From the NCBI GenBank assembly GCA_035289385.1, contig DATDXI010000031.1:1-57227 (forward strand): DNA of 57,227 nucleotides. The letters run 5' to 3'. Positions 953-56,238 of the stretch are shown here, piece by piece (within the stretch, counting starts at the first letter, position 1; each line of letters begins with the position of its first letter). A program made the position numbers and the translations under genes. The notes under the pieces were generated by a model, which saw nothing but the letters and a program-made list of their open reading frames with translations, made no database searches and was not told the DNA's origin. Source of the stretch: Candidatus Nanoarchaeia archaeon. Lineage in GTDB: Archaea; Nanobdellota; Nanobdellia; Woesearchaeales; GW2011-AR9.

Positions 953-984
953 TATTTTCTTGCTACTCTATTTTCCCATCTTCT

Positions 985-1202
985 GTACGTATTTAGTTCC
1001 ACAACAAAAATAGTGGCATTGACCTGCAAGAGCTCACTCTTGCTCGCTCAGGTCACGGAAAATTCAGCCTGCCTCTCAGAATAAAAGCAATGATCATGTG
1101 TTGATTTAAGCATATGGTCAGGCAAGTTATCTTATTTTCAAAGTTCTTAATGAATTTTCCCTCTTGACCTTGCCACTATTTTCAACCGAACTAAATACGG
1201 AC
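985..1202 (+). mobile_element. MITE-like element, copy 1 (218 bp, with an extra 32-nt palindromic insert at 1019-1050)
   Basis: Inverted termini GTACGTATTTAG / CTAAATACGGAC and subterminal AAAATAGTGGCA / TGCCACTATTTT. Flanked by the 8-bp duplication CATCTTCT (977-984) / CATCTTTT (1203-1210). Homologous to the copies at 22303, 49335, 52892 and 56019. Confidence 0.9.
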
Positions 1203-2897
1203 CATCTTTTTTACTTCCTCAAGTGTTGTAGCCTGCTCTGCCTTTTTCTCTCTAAACCTGATGAAGCGCGGGAAACGTACAGCTATGCCTGCAGAATGAA
1301 AGGGGCTTTTTGTCAGTTCTGCACCAAGAACTTCTACAACATGATGAGGAGTAAACCAGATATCCGGATGCATCTCTTTCTTGGCAACCACTCTTGCTGG
1401 CTGTTTCTGAACTTCATCCTTTTTTAATTTCTCCGGTAATTCTTCTAAGACTTGATCCGTCAATCCTGTGCCTAACTTGCAGATAGTGAGAAATTGGTCA
1501 TTTTTTTCATCATAACAGGCGCAGAGCAATGCTCCATATGTTCCGGAACGTTTGCCTTTTCCATGAAATGCACCAATAATCACCAGATCAAGAGTATCTG
1601 ACATATCCTGCGTATAATCTTTTTTCCATTTGATCCAGTTCCAGCCTCGTGTTCCTGCTTGGTATTCCCCGTCATGAGATTTTACGATAACTCCTTCATA
1701 GCCTTCTTCAAGCATATTCTGGAAAAATTCATCCAGCTCTTCGATGCTCTCCGTACTGATCCGTTCCGTCAGCGTGATGTGTTTTGTCTTTTTGACGATC
1801 GATGCCAACTTTTTCTGCCGCTGAAGATAAGGCTCGTGAAGATATGTTGTTCCATCATCATACAGTACGTCAAATAATTTTACTTGGACAGGAATATCCT
1901 GGGCATATTGCTCGATGTCATATTTTCTTCTTCTCTGCATCAGAGTTTGAAAGGGCAGATGATTCCCTTCTTTATCGATGGCCACTATCTCTCCTTCAAG
2001 GATATAATCATCACCTTTCACCTGTTTTTGCAGCTCCTTTACCAGATCGGGAAACTGCTGTGTGATCGTATCTAAGCGTCGGGAGAACAGCGTGATCTTT
2101 CCTTTTTTGTCTTTATGAATCTGCACTCGCTCACCATCATATTTCGCTTCAACGGTAAATTGCCCTGTTATTTTTTTAGAAATTTCATCCAGCTGCTCGA
2201 CTCGCTGTGCCAACATCATCTTGATCGGCCGTCCAACTTTCACTTCGATCTTCTCGAGGCCTTTCAGCCCTTTTTTGACGACTGTTTCTGCTATGACTCC
2301 AACGTCTGGGCAGAGATTATATGCCTGTTCCAGATATTCCTTGTTCTTCTTTTCTCCGGTAAAGGCAATGGCTAGTGCATCAAGAACGGTCATATCCCCA
2401 ACTCCCATCCTTAATGTTCCCAAAGCTATCCGGCAGACATATTTTGCTCCTTGAGGGGAAGATTTTTGTAATAAAGAGACGAGGATGTTGCATTTTTGAT
2501 CTTGGCTTCCCGTGCCAGATGCAGTTGCTATCTTATGTAATTTCTCAAACAACTCATGAACGGTTAATGTTTCAAGAGGAACAAGGGTTTGAGGCTTTTT
2601 TTGCAGGACTTGTTCTGCTGTCAATCCAGCATCGCCAGTTTCCTGCATCTTCTTCTGGACTTTGCTGAGTTCTGTGCCGCCTGCTGAGGCAATCGCCTTT
2701 AAGACGGATTTATCGGCCATGCCTAAAACGACGCCTTCAAATTCAGAAGCGATGGTTCCCAGAGTAAGATAGCAGATAACTCCTATGTCTTCTGCAGGCA
2801 CATTTTTTAAGAAATTTGCGAGAATTTCTCTCATCTCGTTTCCGGAAGAGGTCTTTTCCAGATGTTCATAGAGGCTAACTAGCTTTTCAAAGTCCAT
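1191..2897 (-). CDS. lig: ATP-dependent DNA ligase (archaeal/eukaryotic type)
   Basis: 568 aa with the adenylation motif EAKYDGERVQIH, an N-terminal DNA-binding domain and an OB-fold C-terminal region. CCTTTAAATACC box upstream. The last 3 codons plus the stop lie inside MITE copy 1. Confidence 0.95.
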   Translation of the reverse strand: MDFEKLVSLYEHLEKTSSGNEMREILANFLKNVPAEDIGVICYLTLGTIASEFEGVVLGMADKSVLKAIASAGGTELSKVQKKMQETGDAGLTAEQVLQKKPQTLVPLETLTVHELFEKLHKIATASGTGSQDQKCNILVSLLQKSSPQGAKYVCRIALGTLRMGVGDMTVLDALAIAFTGEKKNKEYLEQAYNLCPDVGVIAETVVKKGLKGLEKIEVKVGRPIKMMLAQRVEQLDEISKKITGQFTVEAKYDGERVQIHKDKKGKITLFSRRLDTITQQFPDLVKELQKQVKGDDYILEGEIVAIDKEGNHLPFQTLMQRRRKYDIEQYAQDIPVQVKLFDVLYDDGTTYLHEPYLQRQKKLASIVKKTKHITLTERISTESIEELDEFFQNMLEEGYEGVIVKSHDGEYQAGTRGWNWIKWKKDYTQDMSDTLDLVIIGAFHGKGKRSGTYGALLCACYDEKNDQFLTICKLGTGLTDQVLEELPEKLKKDEVQKQPARVVAKKEMHPDIWFTPHHVVEVLGAELTKSPFHSAGIAVRFPRFIRFREKKAEQATTLEEVKKMVRI

Positions 2898-2984
2898 AGC
2901 TTCGTAAGAGAAATGTGGTATTTAAAGGTTTAGGAGTCTCTGGCTGAGGAGAAAGATAAACCAATAAAAAATAAAACTTTTTTT

Positions 2985-4004: not shown

Positions 4005-4210
4005 TGTTCCACCCCTTCTTTTGTCTTTACTATCCTATCCCTCTTCATTATTTCTCCAGTAAAGGATATTTTATCGAATAAGACTAGCTGTGAGAATACA
4101 TATATTACTTTTATGTTCTTTTTAGTTAATATTTGTAGCATTATTTAAGAAAATTTATATAATCTGTAAATATTCTTTCCCTTATCTGGGGGAAAAATAA
4201 ACATTTGTCA

Positions 4211-4666
4211 ATGATTGATGCAACGGATAAAAAGATTCTGCAGATTTTGCAAGTAAATGCGCGGCTTTCTTTTCGTGAAGTGGCAAAGAAGGCGCAGGTT
4301 TCTGTCGTAACGGTCATGCATCGTGTCAAGGCGCTGCAGGAGCAGGGGATCATAACTTCCTATACTATTCTTTGTGATGAAGAGAAGCTAGGATATGATA
4401 TTCAAGCAGTAATTAACTTGCGTATTTCTAAAGGAAAGCTCTTTGAGGTAGAACGTTCTATTGCTATTCTTCCAGAAGTATTTGCCTTATATGACCTCAC
4501 GGGAGAGTTCGATGCCTTAATCATTGCTAAATTCAAGAGTAGGAAAAATTTAGATGCTTTTTTAAAGAGAATCCAGCGCTTTGATTTTGTGGAGCGCACC
4601 CAGACATCTTTAGTTTTGAATACGATTAAAGAGAAGCCGTTGGCTATATCTGAAGATCGAAAATAA
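4211..4666 (+). CDS. Lrp/AsnC family transcriptional regulator
   Basis: N-terminal HTH (DKKILQILQVNARLSFREVAKKAQVSVVTVMHRVKALQEQGII) plus a C-terminal AsnC/RAM-type domain. The ATG at 4211 is preferred over the TTG at 4205. Divergent from the GS gene. Confidence 0.9.
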   Translation: MIDATDKKILQILQVNARLSFREVAKKAQVSVVTVMHRVKALQEQGIITSYTILCDEEKLGYDIQAVINLRISKGKLFEVERSIAILPEVFALYDLTGEFDALIIAKFKSRKNLDAFLKRIQRFDFVERTQTSLVLNTIKEKPLAISEDRK

Positions 4667-4714
4667 ATAGCTTCTTTCACAATCTTTAAAAAGTGTTTCT
4701 ACTCATGAATAGTT

Positions 4715-12262: not shown

Positions 12263-13297
12263 TTATTCGCATTTTGAAAATACTTTCCAGCGCTCTTTGG
12301 CAAGGTCATCAATTGTTACCTTAAATTGTTCTTGAAGGATATCAGTAGCTCTGGCTGCTACCACTGTGCGGCTTCCTGAAAGGTGTTGCTGCCTTGCTAG
12401 CTCATAGGCCCAGTTAATCGCTTCTTGGTGAACGATGATCCCATCCTTTTCACCATCGCTGTCAGGTTGGTCCATCTCTTGGCACAAGTGGGATATGCTT
12501 ATGGGAATGGAAATAGGTGCAATAGGCGCAATAGGAGCAGGGGTTGCCTTTCTTTCAGGCTCTTGGAAGGCGAAAGAATACAACAATGAAAGGGCGACCG
12601 TCCCTACTGTTACCAGGGCAGCGCCTCCAATATACGTTCTTGGGTTGAAACGTTCTGGCTGCTGGTTGATAGCTTGAACTTCCAGAAGAAATAAGGAAAT
12701 CGGTTCCTCAGCTCCACGAGACAGATACATCTCTCGAATAGTGTTCAGCGGTGGTGGATTCATTCCTTCAAAATCAGGCTCTCTTATCAAATCTACATAA
12801 TCTCTCAATCTTCCGGAAGCGAAGAGATAGCGGTCTCCTTGCTGTAGCGGAGATTCATATCTCTTTATAGGTTCCTGTTGAAGAGGAGAAGTGCCAGTAT
12901 CATGATGGATGATAACTGTCGGTTCGTTCTCATAATCACGAGCTGGTCTACGTGAAACCACAAGCATCGTTTGCTCTTCTTTCCTGGTGATTTCAGAAGG
13001 AGCAGCATCTTTAGGGAAGTGGTAGATGGCAGCATCGCCCACCGTTAAAAGAGAAAGTGTTGTTCCTTGTATTCCGCCAGCAATAAAGCAACCTCCCAAA
13101 GATCTAGCGCCTAAAACAGCTTCTACCACTTGCTCTACATTTTTTGTTGTGCGGGCCATCAGAGAAAGGGTATGTTCTAGTGCTTCTCGCTCTGTCGCTT
13201 TACCCGAAGAATCTGCTAGCATAAAGAACTGTGGAGATGGTCGGTAGGTGAAAGGAAATGTTCCCCCTAAGCCTACTGCCTTATAGTTTATGGCCAT
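12263..13297 (-). CDS. membrane protein with a degenerate PP2C/SpoIIE-like N-terminal domain (tentative)
   Basis: 344 aa. LADSSG, TVGDAAIY and GDRYLFASGRL loosely resemble PP2C motifs. One TM helix (IGGAALVTVGTVALSLLY). Looks GC-richer than its neighbours by eye. Confidence 0.5.
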   Translation of the reverse strand: MAINYKAVGLGGTFPFTYRPSPQFFMLADSSGKATEREALEHTLSLMARTTKNVEQVVEAVLGARSLGGCFIAGGIQGTTLSLLTVGDAAIYHFPKDAAPSEITRKEEQTMLVVSRRPARDYENEPTVIIHHDTGTSPLQQEPIKRYESPLQQGDRYLFASGRLRDYVDLIREPDFEGMNPPPLNTIREMYLSRGAEEPISLFLLEVQAINQQPERFNPRTYIGGAALVTVGTVALSLLYSFAFQEPERKATPAPIAPIAPISIPISISHLCQEMDQPDSDGEKDGIIVHQEAINWAYELARQQHLSGSRTVVAARATDILQEQFKVTIDDLAKERWKVFSKCE

Positions 13298-13426
13298 CTT
13301 TTCTTCAGTACTTTACTTATTTATAAATTTTTTTCCACTAGTAGTTACATATCCTATGGGCTTAGACAGAACTAAATATGTACTCAAATCCAAAATATTT
13401 ATTAAGCTGAAGAATCTATCTGCCTT

Positions 13427-20279: not shown

Positions 20280-21449
20280 TCACCCCTTCTCTCCACTCAG
20301 TACCTTTACTATCCTAAATAGTCCTATCCAGAAGGGGCTGAGGAAGAGGGTTAAGCCGATAGTGACGATAACGAGCTGGTAGGAAAATATAGGGAGCAAG
20401 CCCAGCTTTAATCCCATGGCGGCAATGATGAAACTGAATTCTCCAATCTGGGCAAGCATCGATCCGGAATACAAACTTTCTGGCCAGCTTTCACCAAAAT
20501 AGCGGAAGATGACGGAGTTGATGAAGGTATTGATCAGGAAAACAACGGCTACTAATAAGGCAATCAAACGAATATTCTCTTTTAGAAAGGAGGCATCGAG
20601 AAGCATGCCTATGGAGGCGAAGAACAGTGCTACAAAGAGCACCCTAAATGATTGAAGGCTGCCTTTAACCCAATGCGTTTCTTTCGTTTTAGCGATGACC
20701 ATCCCTGCTAGAAAAGCACCAAGAGCGGCAGAAAGATGGAATAAGGATGCTAATGCTGCCAAGCCAAAACAAGCGATCAAGGCAGCAAAGATCTGTAGTT
20801 CATAATCCACTTGGAAGCGATTCTTGAAGGGGATGGTTATCTCTGAATGATTGACGAGATATTTTGCCAACAGGACGAATAATGTTACTCCGATACATTG
20901 AAGAAATAGGGCTGAGAAGGTGATGTTTTCTGATCCCAATAATGAAACGATGATCAGCAATGGGGCAACAGCGATGTCCTGAACAAGCAGGATGCTGACG
21001 ATCTGCTTTCCTCTCTTATGCTGAAGCTCTTTTTTATCTTCAAGGATTTTTATTAAGATGGCAGTACTGCTTAAGCTGATGACAAAACCAAGCAGCAGAA
21101 CTTGGCTGGCACTCCAGTGAAAAAAGTAGCCAAATAAGGACATCATGGCAATACTCAGCAGGATCTGAAGATTTGTTCCCATGATAGCTGTACGCCAGTT
21201 GGAAAGGATCTCTGGCAGTGATACTTCCATTCCGATAAAGAATAGTAGCAAGATAATTCCTATTTCTCCCAGCTTGGAGATAGCATCATTGCTGGTAACC
21301 CAGCCTAATCCGGATGGACCGATAAGCATGCCGGTAAGGATATAGGCGATGATCGATGGCTGTTTAAAGTAACGGAGAATACCTCCTGTGATGACGATGA
21401 TTAGCGATCCCATCAGGATTGTTAAAATCAAAGAATTTTCCGCTGCCAT
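20280..21449 (-). CDS. cation:proton antiporter (CPA2/Kef-type membrane domain)
   Basis: 389 aa, about 12 TM helices, typical Na+/H+ exchanger family sequence. Confidence 0.85.
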   Translation of the reverse strand: MAAENSLILTILMGSLIIVITGGILRYFKQPSIIAYILTGMLIGPSGLGWVTSNDAISKLGEIGIILLLFFIGMEVSLPEILSNWRTAIMGTNLQILLSIAMMSLFGYFFHWSASQVLLLGFVISLSSTAILIKILEDKKELQHKRGKQIVSILLVQDIAVAPLLIIVSLLGSENITFSALFLQCIGVTLFVLLAKYLVNHSEITIPFKNRFQVDYELQIFAALIACFGLAALASLFHLSAALGAFLAGMVIAKTKETHWVKGSLQSFRVLFVALFFASIGMLLDASFLKENIRLIALLVAVVFLINTFINSVIFRYFGESWPESLYSGSMLAQIGEFSFIIAAMGLKLGLLPIFSYQLVIVTIGLTLFLSPFWIGLFRIVKVLSGEKG

Positions 21450-21463
21450 CGTGGGCAGATGAA
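21394..21463. repeat. 70-bp direct repeat, copy A (covers the antiporter start codon and first 19 codons)
   Basis: 64/70 identical to 23130-23199 by hand alignment. Confidence 0.9.
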
Positions 21464-21669
21464 AGCAGGTCGTATTTATATTTTTTTGTTTTGGGTAAAT
21501 AAGAGATCTGGCACAAAAATAAATGGTAAAAACTCATCAGATATTTTCTCTGGAACAGTAAGTATTCTTTACAAGGTGTGTGGTTATTCTTTACAGCTCA
21601 AAAACTTACAGAAATATTTAAATAGTTCTTACTTATCTTACTTGTAAGAATTTACAAAAGGAGATTAAA

Positions 21670-22235: not shown

Positions 22236-22302
22236 ACACTATCAACTAACTACAAAGCTTAAAAATGTTAGAGATAACGATAGATAACTAGTACGAAGAC
22301 TA

Positions 22303-22486
22303 GTACGTATTTAGTTCCACGACAAAAATAGTGGCAGATCGTAAAATCCAGCCTGACTTTACGTGTAAAGTAATGATAAAGTATTTATTTTAAGCTAAAG
22401 TCAGGCAACTAGACATATCTCACGAAGCTCTTAATGGATTTTACCTCTTGACCAAGCCACTATTTTCAACCGAACTAAATGCGTAC
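22303..22486 (+). mobile_element. MITE-like element, copy 2 (184 bp)
   Basis: Termini GTACGTATTTAG / CTAAATGCGTAC. Perfect 8-bp duplication GAAGACTA at 22295-22302 and 22487-22494. Confidence 0.95.
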
Positions 22487-22530
22487 GAAGACTAGAAAAT
22501 AATATAAGTGAAGGTGTTATTGCTTTTGTT

Positions 22531-23127
22531 ATGGTTCTCGTTGATGGGAAGGAATTTCTGGATGCAAATAGGCTTCTGCTTGATTCATACAGATTAGCCA
22601 GAATGGTCCTGTTGTCAGAATTTAAACCGACGTTTATGATCGGCATCTGGCGCGGAGGCACGCCGATAGGCATCGCGGTCCAAGAATATTTAGCAGCCCA
22701 TGGTGTTTCTACTGATCATATTGCAATTAGAACTTCGGGATACCGTGCAGGAATTGACCAGCGGGAAGATGCTGTTGCCGTCCATGGTTTAGAATATATG
22801 GTTGAGCATGCTAATGCTTCTGACCGTCTGCTGATCGTCGATGATGTTTGGGATAAAGGCAGAAGCATCCAAGCTGTTAAGGAAACCTTGGAACGACGGA
22901 TGCGCAGGAATATTCCCGCGGACATCAAGGTGGCGACAATCCATTATAAGCCTAACCGGAATGAAATGAACGGAAAACCAGACTTTTATCTCTATGAGAC
23001 AGATGCCTGGTTGATTTATCCGCATGAATTGCATGGTCTTTCTACAGAGGAGATCAGGAAAGGCAAAGGGTATGCGGTCGCTGATCTGATGGTTCCAGAG
23101 CGGCTTGTTGGGAAGGATACTCCGTAA
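22531..23127 (+). CDS. phosphoribosyltransferase (purine PRT-like)
   Basis: PRPP-binding loop LLIVDDVWDKGRS. Confidence 0.8.
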   Translation: MVLVDGKEFLDANRLLLDSYRLARMVLLSEFKPTFMIGIWRGGTPIGIAVQEYLAAHGVSTDHIAIRTSGYRAGIDQREDAVAVHGLEYMVEHANASDRLLIVDDVWDKGRSIQAVKETLERRMRRNIPADIKVATIHYKPNRNEMNGKPDFYLYETDAWLIYPHELHGLSTEEIRKGKGYAVADLMVPERLVGKDTP

Positions 23128-23129
23128 TC

Positions 23130-23199
23130 ACGATGTTCAGTGATCCTATCAGGATTGTTAAAATCAAAGAATTTTCTGCTGCCATCGTGGGCTGATGAA
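23130..23199. repeat. 70-bp direct repeat, copy B (orphan copy of the antiporter 5' end)
   Basis: The minus strand reads ATG GCA GCA GAA AAT..., giving MAAENSLILTILIGSLNIVIT against the true MAAENSLILTILMGSLIIVIT. No gene body follows. Confidence 0.9.
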
Positions 23200-23835: not shown

Positions 23836-24558
23836 TTAGATCTTCCCCACTAAGTGTAATCCTGGCTTCAATGTTTCCTTGCCTGGCTGCCAGTTTGCTG
23901 GACAGACTTCTCCGCCATGTTCACGGACAAATTTCGCTGCTTTGATCTTTCTTAGAAGTTCTGCGCTGCTTCTGCCGATGCTGTTGTCATGGATTTCAAA
24001 TGCTTTTAAAACTCCATCAGGGTCGATGATGAATGTTCCACGTAAGCTTAGTCCTTCATGATGGATATAGGTGCCGTAAGCCTTGCAGATACTTCCCGTA
24101 GGGTCAGCGACCATGGGAAACTTGATTTTTTTGATGGTTGGTGAGTTATCCCACCATGCTTTATGGACGAAAACGGTGTCTGTGGATATGCTTAACACTT
24201 CAGCGCCTAATTTCTTGAATTCATCATAATTATCTGCTAAATCTCCCAGTTCTGTTGGGCAGATAAAGGTGAAATCGGCAGGATAAAAGACTAATACCAC
24301 CCATTTTCCACGATAATGGTCAAGCCTTACTTGCTTTACTTCATTGTTTTGGAAAGCCTGAGCCGCAAAATTGGGGGCCGGCCTATTGATCTCTAACCAT
24401 TCTGGAGATTGTTCTTTACAGCATCCTTCTTCCATCGTTTCTTCTTTACAACATCCTTCTTTCATTGTTCCTTCTTGGCAACATCCTTTTTCCATTGTTT
24501 CTTCTTTACAGCATCCTACCATTGTATGTTCCTCCACAGCATCTACTTGGCCCTTCAT
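23836..24558 (-). CDS. typical 2-Cys peroxiredoxin (AhpC/Prx1-like) with a Cys-rich N-terminal repeat extension
   Basis: Peroxidatic FTFICPTE and resolving EVCPANW motifs. N-terminal 4 x GCCKEETMEK-type repeat. Confidence 0.9.
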   Translation of the reverse strand: MKGQVDAVEEHTMVGCCKEETMEKGCCQEGTMKEGCCKEETMEEGCCKEQSPEWLEINRPAPNFAAQAFQNNEVKQVRLDHYRGKWVVLVFYPADFTFICPTELGDLADNYDEFKKLGAEVLSISTDTVFVHKAWWDNSPTIKKIKFPMVADPTGSICKAYGTYIHHEGLSLRGTFIIDPDGVLKAFEIHDNSIGRSSAELLRKIKAAKFVREHGGEVCPANWQPGKETLKPGLHLVGKI

Positions 24559-27529: not shown

Positions 27530-30097
27530 ATGAAAATAATACCGTTAATGATTTCTTTGTTGGTTGTGCTGCTGTCAGTTGCTGCTTTGGCTGAAGTCGG
27601 TGATGGTAGTCCTGGAGATATAACTATAACTGATGAAGGAAGTGATAGTGGAGATGAAGAAGGTATTGATGATGCTTTGACTGGTACTGATGATGTTCTT
27701 CCGAGCTCAGATGATAGTGCTGTTGATTCAGAAGATTCTGATGATTCTATTATGGATGATGATTTTGGATCAATTTCTGATGGACAAAATGATGCATCTG
27801 CTGAAGAAGCAGGCAGTGATGATGAATCTAGTAATGAAGGATCAGATTCATTTGATGAAGAATTTTCTAGTGTTATTGAAGAAGATATCTATCAGGATGT
27901 AGATGATGTCGCTTTAGAAGGGGAGGCTGGATTGACACCAGACAGCTCATTCTATGTTTTGGAAAATCTTGTGGAATCTGTTCTTGTTGGTGATGATCCG
28001 GTGAAAGCCTTAGAGTATAAAGAGGAGAAGATCTTAGAATTACAGGAGATGGTTGATCAAGGAGATGAAGAAGCTGCGGAGAAAGTATTGGAAAGAGTTG
28101 AGAAGTATAATGAGATCATCAAGAGAGAAGTTTCTCCAGATATGGAAAAGCAAGTGAGGGAAAGCAGTAAGGCGGTTAAAGGTATTTTGGAAGGATTAGA
28201 TTTAGAGGGTGATGAGTGGGAGGATATTCAAGAAAAGGTTGACGAGAATGCTAAAGAAGAAGATAAGATAGCCTTAGCTGCGAAAGTCTCTAAGAAAATA
28301 TCTGAGCTCTGTGAAGCTCTTTCGTCATTAGATCCATTGGAGTATTCAAAGGTTTGCCGGACTGGTGATGAAGCCCCTCAGTGGAAAAGAGACCAAGATA
28401 GGGAGTTGACGGCTGAACAGGAAAAGGAAGCAAAGAAATTTTTTGAGATAATGTCTAGCTGTTATCAGAATCCAGCAGAATGTAAATGTGAGGATATTTC
28501 CATAAAACCATTTGCGGAGCAATGTGCAGTTATTGCTCCTTTGGCTGCGGAATGTGAATCTGGCAATGAAGAAGCCTGTAAGAAGATGGATGATATCGGT
28601 GATCCCATTGACTTACTGCCAGATTATCTCCAAGATGTTATGGCAGATGTCGAAGATAGATATGGAGAAGCGAAGCATGACTTATTTATGCCTCCTGAAT
28701 GTGTTGAGGAAGGCGCTTTAACCAAAGAAGCCTGCTTTAAGGTCATGTTTCGCTTAAATGCGCCTCCAGAATGTCAGGAAGCATTAGAAGCGGGAAAAAT
28801 TGATCCAAAAAATGAGCGTGAAGCACGGGCAGCATGTGAAGAAATTATGTTTACGGCTAATGCCCCTGAGGAATGTCTTGAAGCAGGATTGAAAGATCAT
28901 CGTGACTGTGAAAGATTCATGTTCAAGCTTGATGCACCACAAGAGTGTTTGGATGCGGGCTTAACCGGTTCAGGCAGAGATGACTGGAAGAAATGTGAAG
29001 CCATCCGTTTTAAGCTTGATGCTCCAGAAGAATGTGTTGAAGCTGGCTTAACTGGTTCTGGCAGGGATGATTGGAGAAAATGTGATGCCATCCGATTTAG
29101 GCTAGATGCTCCACAGGAATGTCTTGATGCTGGAATAGATGGAACAGGAAAAGAGGATTGGAAGAAGTGTGAGCTCATCAAATTTAAACTAGAAGCGCCT
29201 CAGGAATGTTTAGATGCAGGGTTAACTGGTTCTGGCAGAGACGATTGGAAGAAATGTGAGAAGATACGATTCCTCCTAGACGCGCCAGAAGAATGTAAGC
29301 AGTTTGCTGATAAGCGTGATCCTTGGAAGGCCTGTCAACCAGTGCAGTTTAAGATGGATGCTCCTCAAGAATGTCTAGATGCTGGTCTTGATGGGACAGG
29401 GAGAGATGACTGGAAGAAGTGTGATAAGATCCGGATGGCCATGGAACAGCAGCAGCGTCCAGAAGGTGATCAGCGTGAAGGAGACTTTAGGCCAGATGAT
29501 CGGCGTGGAGAATTTCCTGGAAAAGAAGGTGAGAGGAGAGGTGATTTCCCACAGGAAGATCAGCGTGGACAACAGCAAGAAGATCAATGCCGTGATTGTT
29601 CTCAGAAATGTGGAGATAGGAGATGGAATTGTAATAATGGGCAATGTGAGTGCTTTGATGATGGGGATGATAGAGATGAAAGTCCTTCGGGGGATGATCA
29701 TCCAAGTGATTCTGGCAGCTTTGATTCTGATGATAGTCGTGATGATAGTGGCTCCAGCAGTGATTCTGGGAGTTCAGATTCAAGTGATGGTGGGTCTTCT
29801 GATAGCGGCAGTTCTGGATCAAGTGGTGATTCTGGGAGTTCAGATTCAAGCGATGGTGGATCTTCTGATAGTGGCAGTTCTGGATCAAGTGGTGATTCTG
29901 GATCAGGAGATAGCGGTTCTTCTGGCGGAGATTCTGGCTCAAGTGGAGATAGTGGCGGCTCAGAAGCATCTAGTGAGAGTTCCGGCGATAGTGTTACCGG
30001 ATCTGCCGTAAGAATCTTTAACCCAACCGGATCGGCGGTAAAGATATTTGATCCTTTAGGAGAGAAAAGATTTAGGGAACTTGGAAGATTCAGGTAA
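27530..30097 (+). CDS. secreted, highly acidic, cysteine-repeat protein (855 aa)
   Basis: Signal peptide MKIIPLMISLLVVLLSVAALA, a D/E/S-rich N-terminal region, 8-9 repeats of about 33 aa (F-K-L-D-A-P-Q-E-C-L-D-A-G-L-T-G-S-G-R-D-D-W-K-K-C) and an S/G/D low-complexity tail. Confidence 0.8.
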   Translation: MKIIPLMISLLVVLLSVAALAEVGDGSPGDITITDEGSDSGDEEGIDDALTGTDDVLPSSDDSAVDSEDSDDSIMDDDFGSISDGQNDASAEEAGSDDESSNEGSDSFDEEFSSVIEEDIYQDVDDVALEGEAGLTPDSSFYVLENLVESVLVGDDPVKALEYKEEKILELQEMVDQGDEEAAEKVLERVEKYNEIIKREVSPDMEKQVRESSKAVKGILEGLDLEGDEWEDIQEKVDENAKEEDKIALAAKVSKKISELCEALSSLDPLEYSKVCRTGDEAPQWKRDQDRELTAEQEKEAKKFFEIMSSCYQNPAECKCEDISIKPFAEQCAVIAPLAAECESGNEEACKKMDDIGDPIDLLPDYLQDVMADVEDRYGEAKHDLFMPPECVEEGALTKEACFKVMFRLNAPPECQEALEAGKIDPKNEREARAACEEIMFTANAPEECLEAGLKDHRDCERFMFKLDAPQECLDAGLTGSGRDDWKKCEAIRFKLDAPEECVEAGLTGSGRDDWRKCDAIRFRLDAPQECLDAGIDGTGKEDWKKCELIKFKLEAPQECLDAGLTGSGRDDWKKCEKIRFLLDAPEECKQFADKRDPWKACQPVQFKMDAPQECLDAGLDGTGRDDWKKCDKIRMAMEQQQRPEGDQREGDFRPDDRRGEFPGKEGERRGDFPQEDQRGQQQEDQCRDCSQKCGDRRWNCNNGQCECFDDGDDRDESPSGDDHPSDSGSFDSDDSRDDSGSSSDSGSSDSSDGGSSDSGSSGSSGDSGSSDSSDGGSSDSGSSGSSGDSGSGDSGSSGGDSGSSGDSGGSEASSESSGDSVTGSAVRIFNPTGSAVKIFDPLGEKRFRELGRFR
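29762..29893 (+). repeat. 66-nt tandem duplication inside the S/G/D tail coding region
   Basis: Units 29762-29827 and 29828-29893 differ at 3 positions (hand alignment). Confidence 0.85.
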
Positions 30098-42842: not shown

Positions 42843-43042
42843 TTATTTTTGATAGGCATACCCTATTTAATTTATGATTGTTGATTAAATTATTTAGTTT
42901 TAAATACTTTTAGTTTTAATCTGGTTTTTTGTTGGTTATACTAGTGTAATATTGTAGTTGAAGATTAAATGTTTTAGATTTTGATGATTTCAAACAAATA
43001 TATAGTTTACTTTTTAATAATAAATATTATCATAATAATTAT

Positions 43043-43057
43043 TAATCTTTGCTTAAA
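43043..43057. repeat. 15-bp direct repeat TAATCTTTGCTTAAA (left copy)
   Basis: Identical 15-mer at 44161-44175, with looser similarity extending upstream (AAATATTAT...). Confidence 0.8.
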
Positions 43058-43096
43058 CATTTTATTAAAAGAAGGGTGAAAAAACTAACAAAAAGA

Positions 43097-43717
43097 CTAC
43101 CCAAACACATTTCCTACCTTTTCTTGTAATTCTTTATCCATCTCGCTGATACTTTTCGTTCCATAGAGGTCCATCGTTGTCTTATAAGAAAGGTGTCCCA
43201 GCACCTTTTGTACCACTTCCAAGCTTAATCCTCGATCTTTTAATATTCGTGCACAGGAATGCCGTAAGATGTGGGGATTGATGTTCTTAAGCTCAGGAAT
43301 AGGGTTATGAAGCTGAGCGCGTTGTCCTGCTTGAGCCACGATTCTATTGATTTGAGTAGGAGTAATATGCCCCTGGTTATTTAAACTGGAGACTGCCGGG
43401 AAAAGATAGCCCGTTTTTGGATTATTGAGAACATATTGCATATAAATCTTGAGATCTTCAACGAGCTGGTCTGAAAACATAGTTGCTAACCTATCAATAT
43501 TCTTCTTTCCTAGAATCCTTATCTTATTCGTTATGAGATCAATATCCTCAATCTTTATTTTTGCCAGTTCAAACCGCCGCAAGCCACAGTATGCTAAAAG
43601 CTTGATGATAACCTTATCTCGTAATTTATCTGCATGTTTCACTAATTGTCGAATCTGTTCTTCAGAAAGATGAAACTGGCTCCTGCTATGTCCTTTCTTC
43701 ACCACTTTTTCATTCAT
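43097..43717 (-). CDS. tyrosine recombinase/integrase (short, catalytic domain only)
   Basis: AYCGLRRFE (Arg I), HILRHSCA (H-x-x-R) and LGHLSYKTTMDLY (His/Tyr). Confidence 0.85.
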   Translation of the reverse strand: MNEKVVKKGHSRSQFHLSEEQIRQLVKHADKLRDKVIIKLLAYCGLRRFELAKIKIEDIDLITNKIRILGKKNIDRLATMFSDQLVEDLKIYMQYVLNNPKTGYLFPAVSSLNNQGHITPTQINRIVAQAGQRAQLHNPIPELKNINPHILRHSCARILKDRGLSLEVVQKVLGHLSYKTTMDLYGTKSISEMDKELQEKVGNVFG

Positions 43718-43934: not shown

Positions 43935-44160
43935 CTTTTTTCAAGAAAGAAAGATTTGGTCGCCCAAGGATCACAGTAGTTAGAACAGGTTGATTATTAT
44001 AACATTACGGAGATACTTCCCCTTGTTCTAAAATGTTTAATCAACAATTGTATGTTTAGATTATAAAAATAATAACTGTTGATTGCTTGTTTTATCTTAC
44101 TCTATTATCTTTTATCTATTAAAACTAATTTTAAATGAAATATTATATTTTATAAACTAC

Positions 44161-44175
44161 TAATCTTTGCTTAAA
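44161..44175. repeat. 15-bp direct repeat TAATCTTTGCTTAAA (right copy)
   Basis: Identical to 43043-43057. Confidence 0.8.
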
Positions 44176-44179
44176 TCTT

Positions 44180-44941
44180 CTATGTCTGTTGATGTGCTGC
44201 TTCTCTAGCTCTTCGTTGCAGGTTTACTTCCCATTTTTCTGCTCGGGGATTATCTGATTCTTGTTGTGTGAAGTAAAATCCCTGCGTTCTCCAGGAAATG
44301 AGTCTTTTCGTAGTATGGTCTAGGCATTCGATAGCGCTAAGCAGTCTTTCAACAACACTTAAGTCATAAGTAACCAAGGCAACTCTCCCACTCGTGTTGC
44401 TGTGATCTAGGGCATATCCTAATGTGGCAGCAACTAAGCTTTGATCAATATCATCATTTCCAAAAACTTCCCCATAGGGTAAATCCTGATCGATAAAATA
44501 AGCTGCAGTTACATTGGTGATATCCATAAGTGCATTGATTGCGTTTATAACATTAGGATCCATTCCCTTTCTTAGAACCAATGGATTAAACATCTTTGTT
44601 TTCCCATCGGCCATTTTTGTTTTACTGGGGAAATAGCCAGTAACTTCTTCAAAGAACTCTGCGCATCTTTTGCTTAATGCAGCGTAAAATCTGCGATGCT
44701 CTAAAAGAACACCAATAGTAGTGTGAACATTTTCTGCGCTTAATAGCTGTTGGAGCTCTTCTGCTCTTCGAAGATAATCTTCCAAGCGATCAAGATGTGG
44801 TGCTAAGTCACTTGCTGTTTCTATTTGCTGTAAGTCTCTGTGGAGATATCTCATGCCAGGAACAGAACTTAGAACATTATTGTCTATCAGCACGTGATCA
44901 TATCGTTCAACAATTTGAAGAAGAGTATAACCTGAATCCAT
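44180..44941 (-). CDS. hypothetical protein, possibly a PIN-like fold with a helical insert
   Basis: VLIDNNVL, DIDQSLVAATLGYAL and LVTYDLSV are spaced like PIN acidic motifs. Tentative. Confidence 0.5.
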   Translation of the reverse strand: MDSGYTLLQIVERYDHVLIDNNVLSSVPGMRYLHRDLQQIETASDLAPHLDRLEDYLRRAEELQQLLSAENVHTTIGVLLEHRRFYAALSKRCAEFFEEVTGYFPSKTKMADGKTKMFNPLVLRKGMDPNVINAINALMDITNVTAAYFIDQDLPYGEVFGNDDIDQSLVAATLGYALDHSNTSGRVALVTYDLSVVERLLSAIECLDHTTKRLISWRTQGFYFTQQESDNPRAEKWEVNLQRRAREAAHQQT

Positions 44942-48716: not shown

Positions 48717-49346
48717 ATGATACAATCAAAAAAATCGTTAGAGCTGGAGTTAAGCAAGCTAAAGGTCTTTGAAAAGCCATCTCTTCAGCTGGAACAATAT
48801 GCCACCCCTAGTCATATCGCTGCAGATTGGATCTGGATCATGGCCATGAGGGGAGAAGTTATGGGAAGAACCATCCTTGATGCAGCTGCCGGTCCGGGAA
48901 TTTTAGGCCTGGGATTATTGTTGATGGGTGCTAAAAAAGTGTATTTTGTTGACAAAGATCCAGTAATTTTACAGGTTTGTAGTGATAATTACCATCAAAT
49001 TAAAGAGGAATATGAAGTTGGAGAAGCAGAGTTTATTACGTCAGACATCAGCTTGTTCGATGAGCATGTTGATCTTGTCGTGCAGAATCCGCCATTTGGC
49101 ACGAAAGATGAGCATATCGACAAACTCTTTTTAGAAAAAGCATTTGTTGCTGCACCATTAGTGTATAGTATGCATAAATTCTCTACAAAACAATTTGTGG
49201 AAGCGATCAGTAAGGATTATGGATTTATGATTACGGGAGTCTGGCGTTATGAATTTCCGATCAAAGCGCAGTTTTCTTTTCATAAGAAGCTGGTAAGGAA
49301 TATTGATGTGGGATTGTGGAGAATGGAAAAGAAGGTACGTATTTAG
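48717..49346 (+). CDS. METTL5-like N6-adenine/RNA methyltransferase
   Basis: Motif I ILDAAAGPGILG and motif IV VVQNPPFGT. The final V-R-I-stop is encoded by MITE copy 3. Confidence 0.85.
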   Translation: MIQSKKSLELELSKLKVFEKPSLQLEQYATPSHIAADWIWIMAMRGEVMGRTILDAAAGPGILGLGLLLMGAKKVYFVDKDPVILQVCSDNYHQIKEEYEVGEAEFITSDISLFDEHVDLVVQNPPFGTKDEHIDKLFLEKAFVAAPLVYSMHKFSTKQFVEAISKDYGFMITGVWRYEFPIKAQFSFHKKLVRNIDVGLWRMEKKVRI

Positions 49347-49571
49347 TTTGGTTGAAAATAGTGGCAAGGTCAAGAGGTAAAATCCATAAAGAGCTTCGTA
49401 AGATCATAAAAATCTAGAGATTTTTAGGATGCAGAAATCAGAGAGATTTCTTGCATAAGTCTAGTTGCGAGGCTTTACGCTTAAACAGATAGTTATCATA
49501 TGGTTCTTAATGAAAGCCTCACTGGATTTTACGACCTGCCACTATTTTCTTTTATCGAACTAAATACGTAC
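49335..49571 (-). mobile_element. MITE-like element, copy 3 (237 bp long variant, inverted orientation)
   Basis: Termini GTACGTATTTAG / CTAAATACGTAC. 8-bp duplication AAAAGAAG (49327-49334) / AAAAGAAA (49572-49579). Confidence 0.95.
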
Positions 49572-49586
49572 AAAAGAAAAAATAAT

Positions 49587-51963: not shown

Positions 51964-52007
51964 ATTCTTGATGGATCCACAATCCTGCTTTTTTACAATA
52001 ATGAAAG

Positions 52008-52022: not shown

Positions 52023-52081
52023 GGCTTAGAATTTATCGATAAAAGTGCTCAAGAAAGAGCATCGAAGGAGTGAGAAGTAAA

Positions 52082-52384: not shown

Positions 52385-52447
52385 GATCATTCTTTCTTTT
52401 TATTATTTTTCTTTATTCTCTTTACTATTCTCTTTATTTATAGTATC

Positions 52448-52819
52448 TTAAGAGTTTCTAGGGATACTCTCTGATAATGGTATTTTGATGCTGTCCCCTA
52501 CATTACAACACCTTGCTTTTTCTCGAGAATCTTTATCTCCCAATTCGATAACATACATTGCTTTTGTATCAGAATTCCAGAAGGAGAAGGGCTGGAAAGC
52601 CCGCTTTATTTCTATAACCTCTCGTTGTTCATTCAACAGCAGTACATCAATGGGGTAAAAGACCATCAGCATATGCAGGGAGATCTTTCTTTCAGAAGGA
52701 AAGATCATGACGAGATTCTGCCTCTTTCTAAACATCAAACCCAGCATCTGGGTGAGGTGAGTCCTGCATATTTTTTCTTTAGTAGAGAATACTATTTTCT
52801 TATTATTGTTGATGAGCAT
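52448..52819 (-). CDS. DUF192-family protein
   Basis: GLMFRK...MIFP...HMLMVFYPIDVLLLNEQREV...YVIEL matches the DUF192 pattern as I recall it. Confidence 0.7.
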   Translation of the reverse strand: MLINNNKKIVFSTKEKICRTHLTQMLGLMFRKRQNLVMIFPSERKISLHMLMVFYPIDVLLLNEQREVIEIKRAFQPFSFWNSDTKAMYVIELGDKDSREKARCCNVGDSIKIPLSESIPRNS

Positions 52820-52891
52820 TGTGGCGAGGTATCATTTTAATAATGATAAGCCATAAATAACATTTAAAATTAATAAATGTGCCTATTTCTT

Positions 52892-53127
52892 CTACGTATT
52901 TAGTTTCATAAAGAAAATAGTGGCAGGTCGGAAAATTCAGCGAGACTTTACGTAGGAAAGGAATGAAAAACACTATATTTAAGCTCAAAGTCTCGCAGCT
53001 AATCTTGTGCAAGAAATCTCTATGATTTCTGCATCCTAAAAATCTGTTGATTTTTATGATCTTACGAACCTCTTAATGAATTTTCCATCTTGACCAAGCC
53101 ACTATTTTAATAGAACTAAATACGTAC
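52892..53127 (+). mobile_element. MITE-like element, copy 4 (236 bp long variant)
   Basis: Termini CTACGTATTTAG / CTAAATACGTAC. 8-bp duplication TATTTCTT (52884-52891) / TATATCTT (53128-53135). The right duplication overlaps the leuS stop codon by 2 nt. Confidence 0.95.
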
Positions 53128-53133
53128 TATATC

Positions 53134-55971
53134 TTACTCTAGCAATATCCCAACTTTACCCGGCCAAGCCTGTTTCGCTTTCGCTTCAGTAGAATCTTCT
53201 GCTGAAACTATCTTGATTTCGCAGCCAGCTTCTTTTGCTAGAAACTCCTTAGCTTCCTTCATCACGTTCAATTCATCTTCCGCTGATGTAACATGGCTCG
53301 GCAGCTTTGAGACATCCTTTACTATAGCCTGAACAATCTTGGTAACTTCTTTACCCTTCAGCTTCATCTGCTCTGCTTCCAAGACTTTTCTCATGATCTC
53401 TCCGATATCTCTGGTTATTTTTATTTCTGAGGACAATATCTTGAAGAGTTCATACAACCAGCTCTCTGCAATAAAAAGAGTGCAGGCCTTTACTTTCTCC
53501 ACCTTGGCCAGCTTTACGACTTGCCTGATGCCTTCAAGAGTAGACTTGACCAATTCTTCCCCAGCTTCAGCTGAATGATCTATCTTTTCCTGCACCACCT
53601 GCGGCCAGGCTTGAGTAGAAGCTAGTTCTCCATTACTTAGTTTTCCATCACTATTAAGCTCTTCACTCAGATGAGGAGTGATGGGATTCATGATTCTAGA
53701 CCAGATACTGATATATTCCTCAATAACCTGCCGGTTGCTTCCTCCCCTCCTAGAATACCAGCGAAAGTTATCATAGAAGGTAAAATAAGCGATAGAAGCA
53801 AGCTCGCGCAGATCATATTTTTCCATAACAGTATGGATTTTCTTCAGCTGCTGATGCGCCATGGAAATCAGCCAGCGGTCAATGACGGCTTCTTCTTTGT
53901 TAGCAATTTTCCTAAGATCTTGACATACTACAAAGATCCTTTCCAGAGCTTGCTTGTAGTTTAAGACAACATCTTCATCCCATTGCACATCAACATGAGG
54001 ACTGGCGATATGGGCATAGTACAACCTCATGGCGTCAACACCATACTTGGCTATCGCTTCAGGAATAGGCTCAGCGCCACCTTTACTTTTAGAGATCTTG
54101 CTTCCTTTACCGATGACCCACCAGTTGACAAAAATTCCTCGTGGCCACTTCTCTTCTGGAAGAATAGCTATGTGATTCATCAAAAAGACAGGGAAATGCA
54201 CCGTCTGATGCTCTTTTCCACCGAGATTCATATCTAATGGATAGAAGTAATCAAATTCTTCCTTGATCGGTTTCCATTCTTTCTTCCCTTCACCTTTTCC
54301 CAGAAAGACATAGTCAAAAAATTCTTCCGTAAGGTCCTGGCTGGAGATGGTACTATTGTTAACATATTTTGAAACGATATAGTATGCCGGATAAAGCGTA
54401 GAATCGCTGATCGGCTCAACAGTCCAGGTTTCATCAAAAGGGAACTTGCTTCCCAACCAGGTTCCTAATCTGGCACAAGCCCTATCCTGGAACCAATCTA
54501 AGACAGAGGGCAGATTATGATGATATTCTGTAGGAAATATCCTCATCTCTCTAGCCTGCTCTTTGCTGCGTTCGGTAAGCTCTTGGTCAGAATATTTGAT
54601 AAACCATTGGTCATCAACTCTCTTGATAACAACTTGCGAACCACAACGGCAGACAACTTCCTCACTAAGGTCATGAAAGAGGTCTGCTTGACCTTTTTCA
54701 ATAAGTTCTGCTTTCACTAATTCCTTTGCTTCTTCTACATTCTTGCCGCTATATTTCCCGCTGATCTCTAGCATAATGCCAGTATGATGCTCTGCGCGAT
54801 AAATTTCACGTTTCGCTTCTTCTAACTTTTCAACCTCTGTCTGGCTGGTGATGTTCATCTTCTTGCAGATCTCTTCTGCGGGATGAACACCCCAATCTTT
54901 TGTTTTTATTAAGGGGATAGGGTAAATGGCTTGCACCTCTTTCTGGTTAAGCCTATATCTTTTGCATTCAGCACTATTTTTTTTGATATCTTCCAAGGCA
55001 ATCCAATCATAAGGAGCGTGGCTAGGTACGCAAGTGACGATGCCAGAACCTATCTTTGGATCGACGAAAGATGCAGGCAGGATCATAATCTCTCGCTCAG
55101 CTCCTGGAGCGAGAGCCAATTGGCCGATCATCGCCTTGATATCAACATCACCTTTTAAGATAACATCATCTTTTTGATACTTTATCTTCTCTGCAGCTTC
55201 CTTGCTGAGTACCCATATTTCACCATCCACCTCTATCCGAACATATTCAGCATAAGGATTTATCCAGAGATTTGTCTGGCCATAGACCGTTTCAGGTCGT
55301 AGCGTAGCAGCAACGAGGTATTCTTTTCCAAGCTTAAATTTCAATAAGGTATACTCATTCTTTTCCGCATTTCCACCCTTGGAGATGTCTGTTTCCGATG
55401 GATCGACAGCTACCGGACCGTCTTTGATGCAAGCAGTAGCAAAGTAGGGTTTCTGTACTAAAAGATCTTTCTGCTTCAGTTTCCTGAACTGCCACTGGAT
55501 GAATTTTTCATAATCCGGAAATGTCGTGCAGGTAAATCTCTCCCAGTCTGCTAAGAAGCCAAATTTTTTCCAATATTGGTTCACGTAAACATCATTAAAA
55601 TACTCAATAACCTTGCTTGGCTCTATCAATTGCTTGATCTTTTCTGATGGGCAGCCATTTCTCTGCAGATATTCTAGCCACGTCTTATCCTTATTCTTGA
55701 CTTTATTGGCAAAAGCTATGGCCTGATTGCCTGAAGCGTGTGTGCCAACAGGAAACAATACTTCTTTGCCTTGCAGACGTTCAAAGCGGCAGATGGCATC
55801 AGTATAAGAAAAGCCGCGCATATGGCCAACGTGAAGAAAACCTGAAATACCGGGATAAGCAAAGATCATCATAAATTTCTCTTTTTCCTTCCTGACTGAA
55901 GCTCTGCCTATCTGAGCTGTTTCCCAGGCTTTCTGCCACTTCTCTTGGATGATATTCCAGTCTAATGCCAT
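53134..55971 (-). CDS. leuS: leucyl-tRNA synthetase, archaeal type
   Basis: 945 aa from MALDWNIIQEKW. HVGH (HIGH-type) and KISKSKG (KMSKS-type) motifs. The track's 52 extra N-terminal codons run into MITE copy 5. Confidence 0.95.
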   Translation of the reverse strand: MALDWNIIQEKWQKAWETAQIGRASVRKEKEKFMMIFAYPGISGFLHVGHMRGFSYTDAICRFERLQGKEVLFPVGTHASGNQAIAFANKVKNKDKTWLEYLQRNGCPSEKIKQLIEPSKVIEYFNDVYVNQYWKKFGFLADWERFTCTTFPDYEKFIQWQFRKLKQKDLLVQKPYFATACIKDGPVAVDPSETDISKGGNAEKNEYTLLKFKLGKEYLVAATLRPETVYGQTNLWINPYAEYVRIEVDGEIWVLSKEAAEKIKYQKDDVILKGDVDIKAMIGQLALAPGAEREIMILPASFVDPKIGSGIVTCVPSHAPYDWIALEDIKKNSAECKRYRLNQKEVQAIYPIPLIKTKDWGVHPAEEICKKMNITSQTEVEKLEEAKREIYRAEHHTGIMLEISGKYSGKNVEEAKELVKAELIEKGQADLFHDLSEEVVCRCGSQVVIKRVDDQWFIKYSDQELTERSKEQAREMRIFPTEYHHNLPSVLDWFQDRACARLGTWLGSKFPFDETWTVEPISDSTLYPAYYIVSKYVNNSTISSQDLTEEFFDYVFLGKGEGKKEWKPIKEEFDYFYPLDMNLGGKEHQTVHFPVFLMNHIAILPEEKWPRGIFVNWWVIGKGSKISKSKGGAEPIPEAIAKYGVDAMRLYYAHIASPHVDVQWDEDVVLNYKQALERIFVVCQDLRKIANKEEAVIDRWLISMAHQQLKKIHTVMEKYDLRELASIAYFTFYDNFRWYSRRGGSNRQVIEEYISIWSRIMNPITPHLSEELNSDGKLSNGELASTQAWPQVVQEKIDHSAEAGEELVKSTLEGIRQVVKLAKVEKVKACTLFIAESWLYELFKILSSEIKITRDIGEIMRKVLEAEQMKLKGKEVTKIVQAIVKDVSKLPSHVTSAEDELNVMKEAKEFLAKEAGCEIKIVSAEDSTEAKAKQAWPGKVGILLE

Positions 55972-56018
55972 ATATAAGATGGAAATAAGTTGATGGTTTT
56001 TAAAGATTGCGTGGGTGG

Positions 56019-56201
56019 GTACGTATTTACTTCCATACCAAAAATAGTGGCAGGTCGTAAAATCCAGCGTGGCTGTATGTCGAACAGTAGTACATCTCTT
56101 TGTTTTGAGCAGAAAGCCACGCAACAAATCTTCTCTTACGAGGCTCTAAATGGATTTTACCTCTTGACCAAGCCACTATTTTAATAGAACTAAATATGTA
56201 C
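56019..56201 (+). mobile_element. MITE-like element, copy 5 (183 bp)
   Basis: Termini GTACGTATTTAC / CTAAATATGTAC. Perfect 8-bp duplication GTGGGTGG at 56011-56018 and 56202-56209. Confidence 0.95.
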
Positions 56202-56238
56202 GTGGGTGGTCGCTCTATTTCTTTATAACTTCTACATT

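Follow-up and report, generated by a model that had tools for sequence, protein, structure and literature searches.

A stretch of 57,227 nucleotides from the Candidatus Nanoarchaeia archaeon contig DATDXI010000031.1 (the whole of which is called the window here) contains five copies of a short non-coding element, which is almost certainly a mobile miniature inverted-repeat transposable element (MITE) with an 8-bp target-site duplication (TSD). In about two thirds of 64 independent insertions of this family, the TSD is located exactly 6 bp upstream of a TATA box. Taken together, we consider it quite likely that the element is a mobile MITE with an 8-bp TSD and that it reached its TATA-adjacent position through targeting. 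The MITE itself is ordinary; its nucleotide-precise placement beside the transcription factor B (TFB) recognition element (BRE) and the TATA box, and its covarying fold, are unusual.

Copies, family and mobility

A preliminary description of the window had proposed five homologous copies, and a profile built from the five scored each of them with an E-value of 1e-49 to 1e-55. Copy 1 (985–1202, plus strand, 218 bp) consists of a 184-bp core with a hairpin module, A, following GTGGCA; copy 2 (22303–22486, plus strand) is the 184-bp core form; copy 3 (49335–49571, minus strand, 237 bp) is a core with the 52-nt double-hairpin module D; copy 4 (52892–53127, plus strand, 236 bp) is likewise a core with module D; and copy 5 (56019–56201, plus strand) is a 183-bp core. 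The end-to-end alignment holds, and the differences in length are due to two discrete insertions. The termini GTACGTATTTAG and an 8-bp TSD are present in each of the five copies (183–237 bp), and no open reading frame (ORF) is common to them, as had been suggested. The abutting 8-mers are duplicated as described: CATCTTCT (977–984) and CATCTTTT (1203–1210) at copy 1, GAAGACTA (22295–22302 and 22487–22494) at copy 2, AAAAGAAG (49327–49334) and AAAAGAAA (49572–49579) at copy 3, TATTTCTT (52884–52891) and TATATCTT (53128–53135) at copy 4, and GTGGGTGG (56011–56018 and 56202–56209) at copy 5, with identities of 7/8, 8/8, 7/8, 7/8 and 8/8, respectively. An independent repeat search of the window recovered the same arms. 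The terminal 12-mer (up to two mismatches) occurs 12 times in the window compared to 2.1 times expected from shuffles, and the inner box AAAATAGTGGCA 11 times compared to 0.45; no shuffle reached either count. With a 47-copy profile, the window showed no copy beyond these five; the best remaining match was a 14-mer at 13370–13383 (E 1.6).

We collected relatives with the pattern TATTTAGTT-N(6–12)-AAAATAGTGGC, both boxes of one end having to match exactly. This procedure is biased to well-conserved ends and not to particular flanks. In a one-genome-per-species set, the pattern was found in ten contigs of one Woesearchaeota metagenome-assembled genome (JACOZM01), and the other 14 loci look like chance matches. 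The JGI metagenomes yielded 115 stretches with the pattern, most of them from Rifle-type samples. Searching with nhmmer gave 126 non-overlapping matches, 92 of full length, and 78 of these were distinct when the element was counted with its flanks. The family therefore comprises at least 78 distinct full-length copies, and its host contigs are those of Woesearchaeota from groundwater. A census published in 2024 listed a Woesearchaeal genome with 105 MITEs per Mb and gave no description of families (PMC11602168). The termini had not been recognised as those of a described family, and the family was indeed absent from all the libraries that we searched.

The elements measure 154–297 bp with a mode of 184–186 bp, which corresponds to the non-coding core, and no ORF is common to the copies. 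Terminal inverted repeats (TIRs) are present (GTACGTATTTAGTT...AACTAAATACGTAC). Each end is a bipartite inverted repeat of ∼40 bp, made of the terminal box GTACGTATTTAGTT, a variable spacer of 6–9 nt and the inner box AAAATAGTGGC(A/T)..GGTC, and AAAATAGTGGC occurs in both arms. Nearest neighbours at different loci are 87% identical in the median and 97.8% at most, which indicates a diversified family and not a single recent burst. At one locus (L027, 1663–1890), a solitary left end of 30 nt, GTACGTATTTAGTTCCATACGAAGAATAGC, directly follows the TSD GGTTATAA of a complete MITE; either an insertion immediately beside an older decayed copy or an aborted event could explain this.

The evidence for mobility comes from the duplications and from empty sites. 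With ends refined on the terminal motif, the 8-bp duplication is perfect in 44 of the 78 copies, has one mismatch in 12 and two mismatches in eight; its length is constant and its sequence variable. Syntenic contigs that are ∼85–94% identical carry copies at different positions. We joined both flanks of a copy, keeping one 8-mer, and sought the joined sequence in related contigs. Seven contiguous matches were obtained in which the empty site is at or near a single 8-mer, and copy 3 of the window brings the comparisons to eight, four of which match the occupied 8-mer exactly or within one base. Clean empty sites are ATTCTTCC (L103 versus L079), GAAGAAGC (L036 versus L092) and TTTTTTCC (L024 versus L027). 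The four remaining sites are less clean, one being off by 2/8 and three having gaps or several changes. For copy 3, a related contig (L157) whose methyltransferase is 90% identical reads ATG GAG AAA AGA TAA without interruption, and both window flanks overlap on the 8-mer in this sequence. The orthologous empty sites on which the earlier proposal was to be judged thus reduce to, or near to, a single 8-mer in all eight comparisons. From the 8-bp TSDs and the empty sites we conclude that the element is a transposon with an 8-bp TSD. All structural and behavioural features of a MITE were observed except an identified parent.

Position of the insertions relative to promoters

The insertions were known to sit at gene boundaries, and this stands; what had been a list of cases now becomes a nucleotide-precise rule tied to the TATA box. 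Read outward from the element, the flank consists of the 8-nt TSD, a purine-rich BRE-like 6-mer (AAAACC, GAAAAT) and a TATA octamer such as TTTATAAA, TTTAAATA or TTTATATA. With a loose definition of the TATA box, 47 of 128 ends have it at offset 14, compared to ∼5 at each other offset; this definition covers 42 of the 64 elements on at least one side, and inspection of the rest adds about six. With a stricter pattern applied to the 64 independent sites, the box is found at offset 14 for 30 ends, the background mean being 1.55 (Poisson P 5e-28). The stricter pattern also gives a peak at offset 13, which is the same box counted twice, and the counts are at background level for offsets 17–50. The information profile of the reconstructed empty sites has symmetric peaks at +15..+20 and −13..−6 around the TSD. 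The TATA boxes were already present in the empty sites. Orientation is free, the box lying on the left side only in 20 elements and on the right side only in 17.

Most of the TATA-like octamers beside the insertions mark genuine promoters. In the window genome, a TATA peak is also seen at position −30 relative to the ATG of ORFs, a sign that transcripts are leaderless. Of the 51 TATA-adjacent ends, 39 have a long ORF in the same direction behind them, which most often starts 22 nt past the octamer; among the other twelve, several lie ahead of short ORFs and one ahead of a tRNA gene with an intron. The distance from the element end to the next start codon piles up at 44 nt (14 ends exactly at 44, most others of the pile at 42–47), and the promoter-adjacent TSD, at about −44 to −37 relative to a leaderless start codon, borders the BRE on its upstream side. 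At the tRNA locus (L083, 3792–4022), the TATA box is 6 bp from the TSD and is followed after ∼24 nt by the gene, which ARAGORN (introns allowed) assigns to tRNA-Ala(CGC); the 6-bp rule thus holds at a tRNA promoter too. We did not find promoter-anchored insertion of archaeal mobile elements in a non-exhaustive search of the literature.

In the window, the rule applies to three element ends. The preliminary description had two copies next to promoter boxes; the adjacency is correct and the number is not, as three abut a TATA box (copy 2 on the right, copies 4 and 5 on the left). Copy 2 lies between mazF (PemK) and a phosphoribosyltransferase (PRT) gene, and the host promoter beside it (22495–22508, plus strand) is composed of the BRE-like GAAAAT and the TATA-like octamer AATATAAG, which starts 6 bp past the TSD. 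The ATG of the PRT gene is at 22531, 44 nt from the end of copy 2, and the Pfam PRT domain begins at residue 7. On the left of copy 4, the TATA box of a DUF192 gene (TTTATTAA, 52870–52877, minus strand; ORF 52448–52819) is 6 bp from the TSD. The leuS TATA box (TTTAAAAA, 55997–56004, minus strand) has the same 6-bp spacing to the TSD on the left of copy 5, and the leuS ATG is at 55971, 47 nt from the end of this copy.

Sites listed as lacking a TATA box numbered 22, and on reading 16 of them are truly without one. Most of the TATA-less sites are between convergent gene ends, and several of these insertions overlap the last codons of a gene, the stop codon then coming from the element terminus. 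The terminus GTA CGT ATT TAG gives V-R-I-stop in frame 1, and a TAA is present at nt 18–20 of the consensus in frame 3. An overlap of −12 was found at five ends, among which are those of lig and the METTL5-like methyltransferase gene in the window. The ends of these two genes and of leuS had been placed near the copies; in fact, the lig and METTL5-like stop codons are inside the element terminus, and that of leuS (TAA, 53134–53136, minus strand) is overlapped by the right TSD of copy 4. Copy 1 lies between the convergent 3′ ends of a 170-aa ORF and lig. The DNA ligase stop codon in use (1191–1193, minus strand; ORF 1191–2897) is provided by the terminus, so the protein now ends in ...KKM-VRI*, where the end before the insertion would have been ...KKMGK*. 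Copy 3 lies between the convergent METTL5-like methyltransferase gene and a 200-aa ORF. The methyltransferase takes its stop codon (49344–49346, plus strand) from the copy 3 terminus and ends in ...WRMEKK-VRI*, compared to ...WRMEKR* or ...WRMEKK* in its homologues.

At the TATA-less sites, the TSD is pyrimidine-rich (∼CTTTTCT) in the orientation of the element in 12 of 16 cases and purine-rich in two. This bias, exemplified by 977–984 with 1203–1210 and by 49327–49334 with 49572–49579, was not shown by the promoter-adjacent sites.

Fold, transposase search and gene context

We aligned 47 core copies with MAFFT and derived a consensus structure with RNAalifold. The consensus has 39 pairs, in which the arms pair together and a separate internal hairpin branches off. 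In the alignment, 98.1% of the cells are paired, and 13 of the 39 pairs have changes in both partners. Such double changes affect 115 cells, where column shuffles give 40.2 ± 7.1 and no shuffle out of 500 was as high; when the partners were slid by 1–3 columns, pairing fell to 33–45%. The internal hairpin stem differs among copies with its complementarity kept (CCTGAC/GTCAGG, CGAGGC/GCCTCG, CGAGAC/GTCTCG, CAAGGC/GCCTTG), and the arm stem occurs as GTAAAATCC/GGATTTTAC and GGAAAATTC/GAATTTTCC. In copy 2, the internal hairpin spans 22351–22406 (plus strand), GCCTGAC at 22351–22357 pairing with GTCAGGC at 22400–22406; the minimum free energy of this copy is −64.4 kcal/mol on the plus strand (z −9.7) and −61.7 kcal/mol on the minus strand (z −6.3). 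The copies are 13–19% diverged from one another and their stems are almost never broken. This suggests that the constraint acts on the propagating lineages, and hence that the fold plays a part in transposition. An actual requirement for it is a reasonable possibility, to which we give somewhat less than even weight.

The length variants are explained by five recurrent hairpin modules (A–E) of 32–52 nt, with stems of the TGCAAG...CTTGCA type and fixed insertion points. One module was found in the mirror position and orientation on the opposite arm (L137). The modules were also considered as independent micro-elements and rejected as such, being found inside MITE copies only.

The absence of a transposase gene from the window had been reported, and none of the called genes in the window or in 10 kb on each side has a transposase Pfam domain. 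The proposal that the elements are non-autonomous is likewise supported: in species-representative genomes, JGI metagenomes and a viral set, all matches to the terminal pattern are MITE-sized, truncated by a contig end or due to chance. No autonomous copy with the same ends was found among the 24 genome, 115 metagenome and three viral loci in which both boxes of one end match exactly, and a generic TIR-plus-TSD scan of ∼1 Mb of loci gave nothing with an 8-bp TSD. There was no similarity to plasmid and phage collections. Against Rfam 15, the window had no match that reached the gathering score, and copy 2 had none with E ≤1.

Several candidates for a longer relative or a partner gene were rejected. 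Paired 14-mer termini 400–8000 bp apart (L002, L079) each use an ordinary MITE end, and the L002 interval holds ordinary genes. A 1.6-kb segment that takes the place of a MITE when L067 is compared with L126 is a cassette of ordinary small genes and not an insertion sequence (IS). Two apparent solo ends (L052, L086) are one variant MITE and one truncated end, both beside an unannotated 171-aa ORF or its remnant. A Woesearchaeal contig (L086, 462–1753) carries a frameshifted IS630-type transposase gene (HTH_33 + DDE_3) 160 bp from the truncated MITE end; being frameshifted and outside the element, it was rejected as a partner. No other transposase was noticed around MITE copies in the loci examined, most ORFs there being unscanned. 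In the window, the solitary 14-mer AACTAAATATGTAC at 13370–13383 matches the MITE terminus at 13 of 14 positions and lies at the edge of a 1.16-kb segment (ORF 12263–13297, 344 aa) absent from the relative L089; this ORF was also rejected as a partner, as it has no Pfam domain, the 14-mer has no second end and the profile score is E 1.6. From its TIRs and TSD, the transposase would be of the DDE type.

As had been pointed out, leuS lies between two copies in the same orientation, and each of them has its own TSD. The outer ends of copies 4 and 5 form a valid inverted pair, so the 3.3-kb leuS unit (52892–56201) is a potential composite transposon. It has no sign of having moved.

The gene content of the window is archaeal (ATP-dependent ligase, PriS primase, diphthamide synthase, archaeal ribosomal proteins), and a further MITE copy is present just past its right end. 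Four window proteins are encoded, identical in sequence, on the ENA contig ERZ4903072 k141_790870 (103,788 bp), and the same four are also found on Rifle-type groundwater contigs (JGI 3300025317, 3300025323, 3300002502 and ANAN16 assemblies). Homologues of the METTL5-like methyltransferase carry the label Candidatus Woesearchaeota or Nanoarchaeota in their sources. There are no tRNA or tmRNA genes in the window.

The sole recombinase gene in the window is a Phage_integrase (tyrosine recombinase) ORF on the minus strand at 43097–43717, with a length of 206 aa in the ORF scan and 201 aa in the gene call. Imperfect direct repeats of 58 nt (43008–43065 and 44126–44183, 72% identical) lie on either side of it, and the whole may be the remnant of an integrated element. 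A 76-nt direct repeat at 21388–21463 and 23124–23199 (89% identical), which is a copy of the 5′ end of a Na+/H+ exchanger gene, encloses a 1.7-kb segment with mazE, mazF, MITE copy 2 and the PRT gene. The synteny of L089 with the window ends at window position 21497, where L089 has its own MITE, and the 1.7-kb segment looks like an inserted islet or a MITE-associated rearrangement. An 855-aa ORF with no Pfam hit (27530–30097) has 87-bp tandem repeats and 66-bp Ser/Asp/Gly-rich repeats inside (28906–29433; 29749–29880) and is probably a repetitive surface protein. The peroxiredoxin ORF (23836–24558, minus strand) has four tandem 30-bp units in its 5′ part (24412–24547).

Proposed mechanism, alternatives and known systems

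In the mechanism that we propose, a transposase supplied in trans would cut the target with an 8-bp stagger, giving the 8-bp duplication. The target would not be chosen at random: in roughly two thirds of insertions it would be an 8-bp stretch exactly 6 bp upstream of a TATA box, just outside the BRE and in either orientation, and insertion at this place would leave the core promoter intact. The transpososome may read the promoter itself, either as the sequence and shape of the A-tract/TATA DNA or as the DNA-bound complex of TATA-binding protein (TBP) and TFB. The remaining insertions would mostly fall in A-rich last codons between convergent genes, and would survive there because the consensus terminus gives a stop in two of three frames within 4–6 codons. 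The long hairpin with its side branch, as extruded DNA or as RNA, may be needed for propagation of the element, and the fold might bring the two ends of such a short element together. In its complete form, with an archaeal transposase that recognises promoter-bound TBP/TFB or its distortion of the DNA, inserts the element at the upstream border of the BRE to the exact nucleotide and has the covarying fold as part of its mechanism, this scheme is tentative.

A similar distribution might arise by selection, if in a very compact genome insertion were essentially random in AT-rich intergenic DNA and the TATA-adjacency were a remnant of purifying selection. The space between genes is short, selection would remove insertions that hit coding sequence, the BRE or the TATA box, and a minority of copies is indeed elsewhere, between convergent 3′ ends. 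Selection, however, draws a boundary and not a single-nucleotide peak. The counts stay at background level at offsets 17–50 despite the free intergenic DNA on the far side of TATA-adjacent elements (median 78 nt, up to 673 nt), and the spacing follows the TATA box rather than the ATG, since genes with 5′ leaders keep the 6 bp to the box. We regard this explanation as improbable. As selection alone would not concentrate insertions at one position, integration appears to be directed to the upstream edge of the BRE, and placement beside the TATA box is likely to reflect targeting. The repeats could also be primarily structured small RNA genes or cis-regulatory RNA motifs (terminators, insulators, 3′-UTR stabilisers) whose copy number comes from function. 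This would account for the strong conserved secondary structure with covariation, for both strands folding far better than shuffles, for a near-invariant TTTAAG in an otherwise variable loop, and for G-U pairs outnumbering A-C (33 versus 21) with a conserved G-U at columns 38/150. Against it, transposition is required by the empty sites and by the TSDs, unrelated in sequence, of 56 of the 78 copies; Rfam gives no match even at E ≤1, and there is no orientation bias relative to promoters (20 versus 17). A primary RNA function is therefore very improbable; a role as RNA after insertion could be compatible with mobility.

The origin of the element has an alternative of its own, namely that it is a deletion derivative of an IS66-family (ISBst12-group) IS and is moved by the transposase of that family. 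Both share the 8-bp duplication and termini starting with GT(A/G), the present ones with GTA and, read one base further, GTAC, and IS66 ends typically begin with GTAA (ISfinder family tables). The likeness is, however, one of three nucleotides and of TSD length, with no further sequence similarity. Neither the window nor ∼1 Mb of related loci showed an IS66-type gene, none of the genes called in the window and its flanks has a DDE_Tnp_IS66 domain, and no such transposase was found near the copies. Duplications of 8 bp are also produced by IS256, ISL3, IS6, IS1595, ISH6 and the ISH1 group, which counts against the IS66 assignment. ISDge4 has the TIRs GTGACT.../GTAACT... and an 8-bp repeat (PMC12898284). 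We take the IS66/ISBst12 likeness as a lead and not as a test, and consider this origin unlikely.

A number of points weigh against targeted integration by a transposase aided by the fold. About one fourth to one third of the insertions have no TATA box at the fixed spacing, the TATA definitions and ORF calls are ad hoc heuristics, and only de novo insertions would allow targeting to be told apart fully from selection. The copies were drawn from several related genomes in metagenome assemblies and not from one closed genome, and they are fairly diverged (median 87%), which gives no indication of current activity. No autonomous copy or candidate transposase was found, and the DDE class of the enzyme is deduced from the TIRs and TSD. 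As to the fold, the pairing of the arms could partly mirror both arms tracking one transposase specificity, and templated mutation in palindromes can mimic compensatory change; the internal hairpin cannot be explained by arms that follow one specificity.

DPANN genomes are among the smallest and densest cellular genomes, and this lineage bears a MITE at ∼6 copies per 76 kb. The data suggest that such a load is tolerated through placement outside core promoters, or in last codons with a stop of its own. If the placement is directed by the enzyme, the insertions would mark BRE/TATA positions and provide a natural probe of promoter architecture in an uncultivated lineage, and this would be, to our knowledge, the first case in archaea of an integration that takes its position from the initiation complex or from the TATA box. 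If TBP/TFB recognition is true, the element could build up to ∼80 copies per Mb in a reduced DPANN genome and leave the genes unbroken. With its covarying fold and modular addition of hairpins, the family is well suited to the question of why MITEs stay palindromic.

Archaeal MITEs covered in a 2024 review are from Sulfolobus, Halobacterium, Haloquadratum and Desulfurococcus, with no DPANN example and, by term search of the text, no mention of TATA (PMC10969869). The present family resembles prokaryotic MITEs, such as the bacterial Correia, ERIC and RUP elements, in being short and non-coding, with TIRs, a TSD of fixed length, many mostly intergenic copies and folding into long hairpins. It differs in having no identifiable parent IS, in its host, a DPANN archaeon with a reduced genome, and in its nucleotide-fixed position to the TATA box, compensatory fold and subfamilies defined by hairpin modules. 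With MITEs derived from IS630/Tc1-mariner elements, it has in common that an IS630-type transposase gene occurs in the same population (L086). That family duplicates TA, and such a derivation was rejected since the duplication here is 8 bp long and of variable sequence. Conserved stem-loops are also central to the IS200/IS605-derived PATEs and to REP/REPIN sequences. These insert without duplication and have no TIRs, whereas both TIR and TSD are present here, which excludes a PATE or REP-like identity.

The yeast Ty3 and Dictyostelium TRE elements target TBP-containing initiation complexes (TFIIIB). They share with the present family integration at a fixed short distance from a TBP/TFIIB-like factor, a compact host genome and a gene-sparing 'safe haven'. 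Those elements are retrotransposons at RNA polymerase III genes, and their integrase-factor contacts were shown by experiment, whereas here a DNA transposon lies at general archaeal promoters and a contact with TBP/TFB is only inferred. If that contact is real, the family would be the prokaryotic DNA-transposon counterpart of Ty3/TFIIIB targeting. What is new here is the TATA-fixed placement, the stop codons supplied by the terminus in last codons, and a hairpin with compensatory substitutions and added modules.

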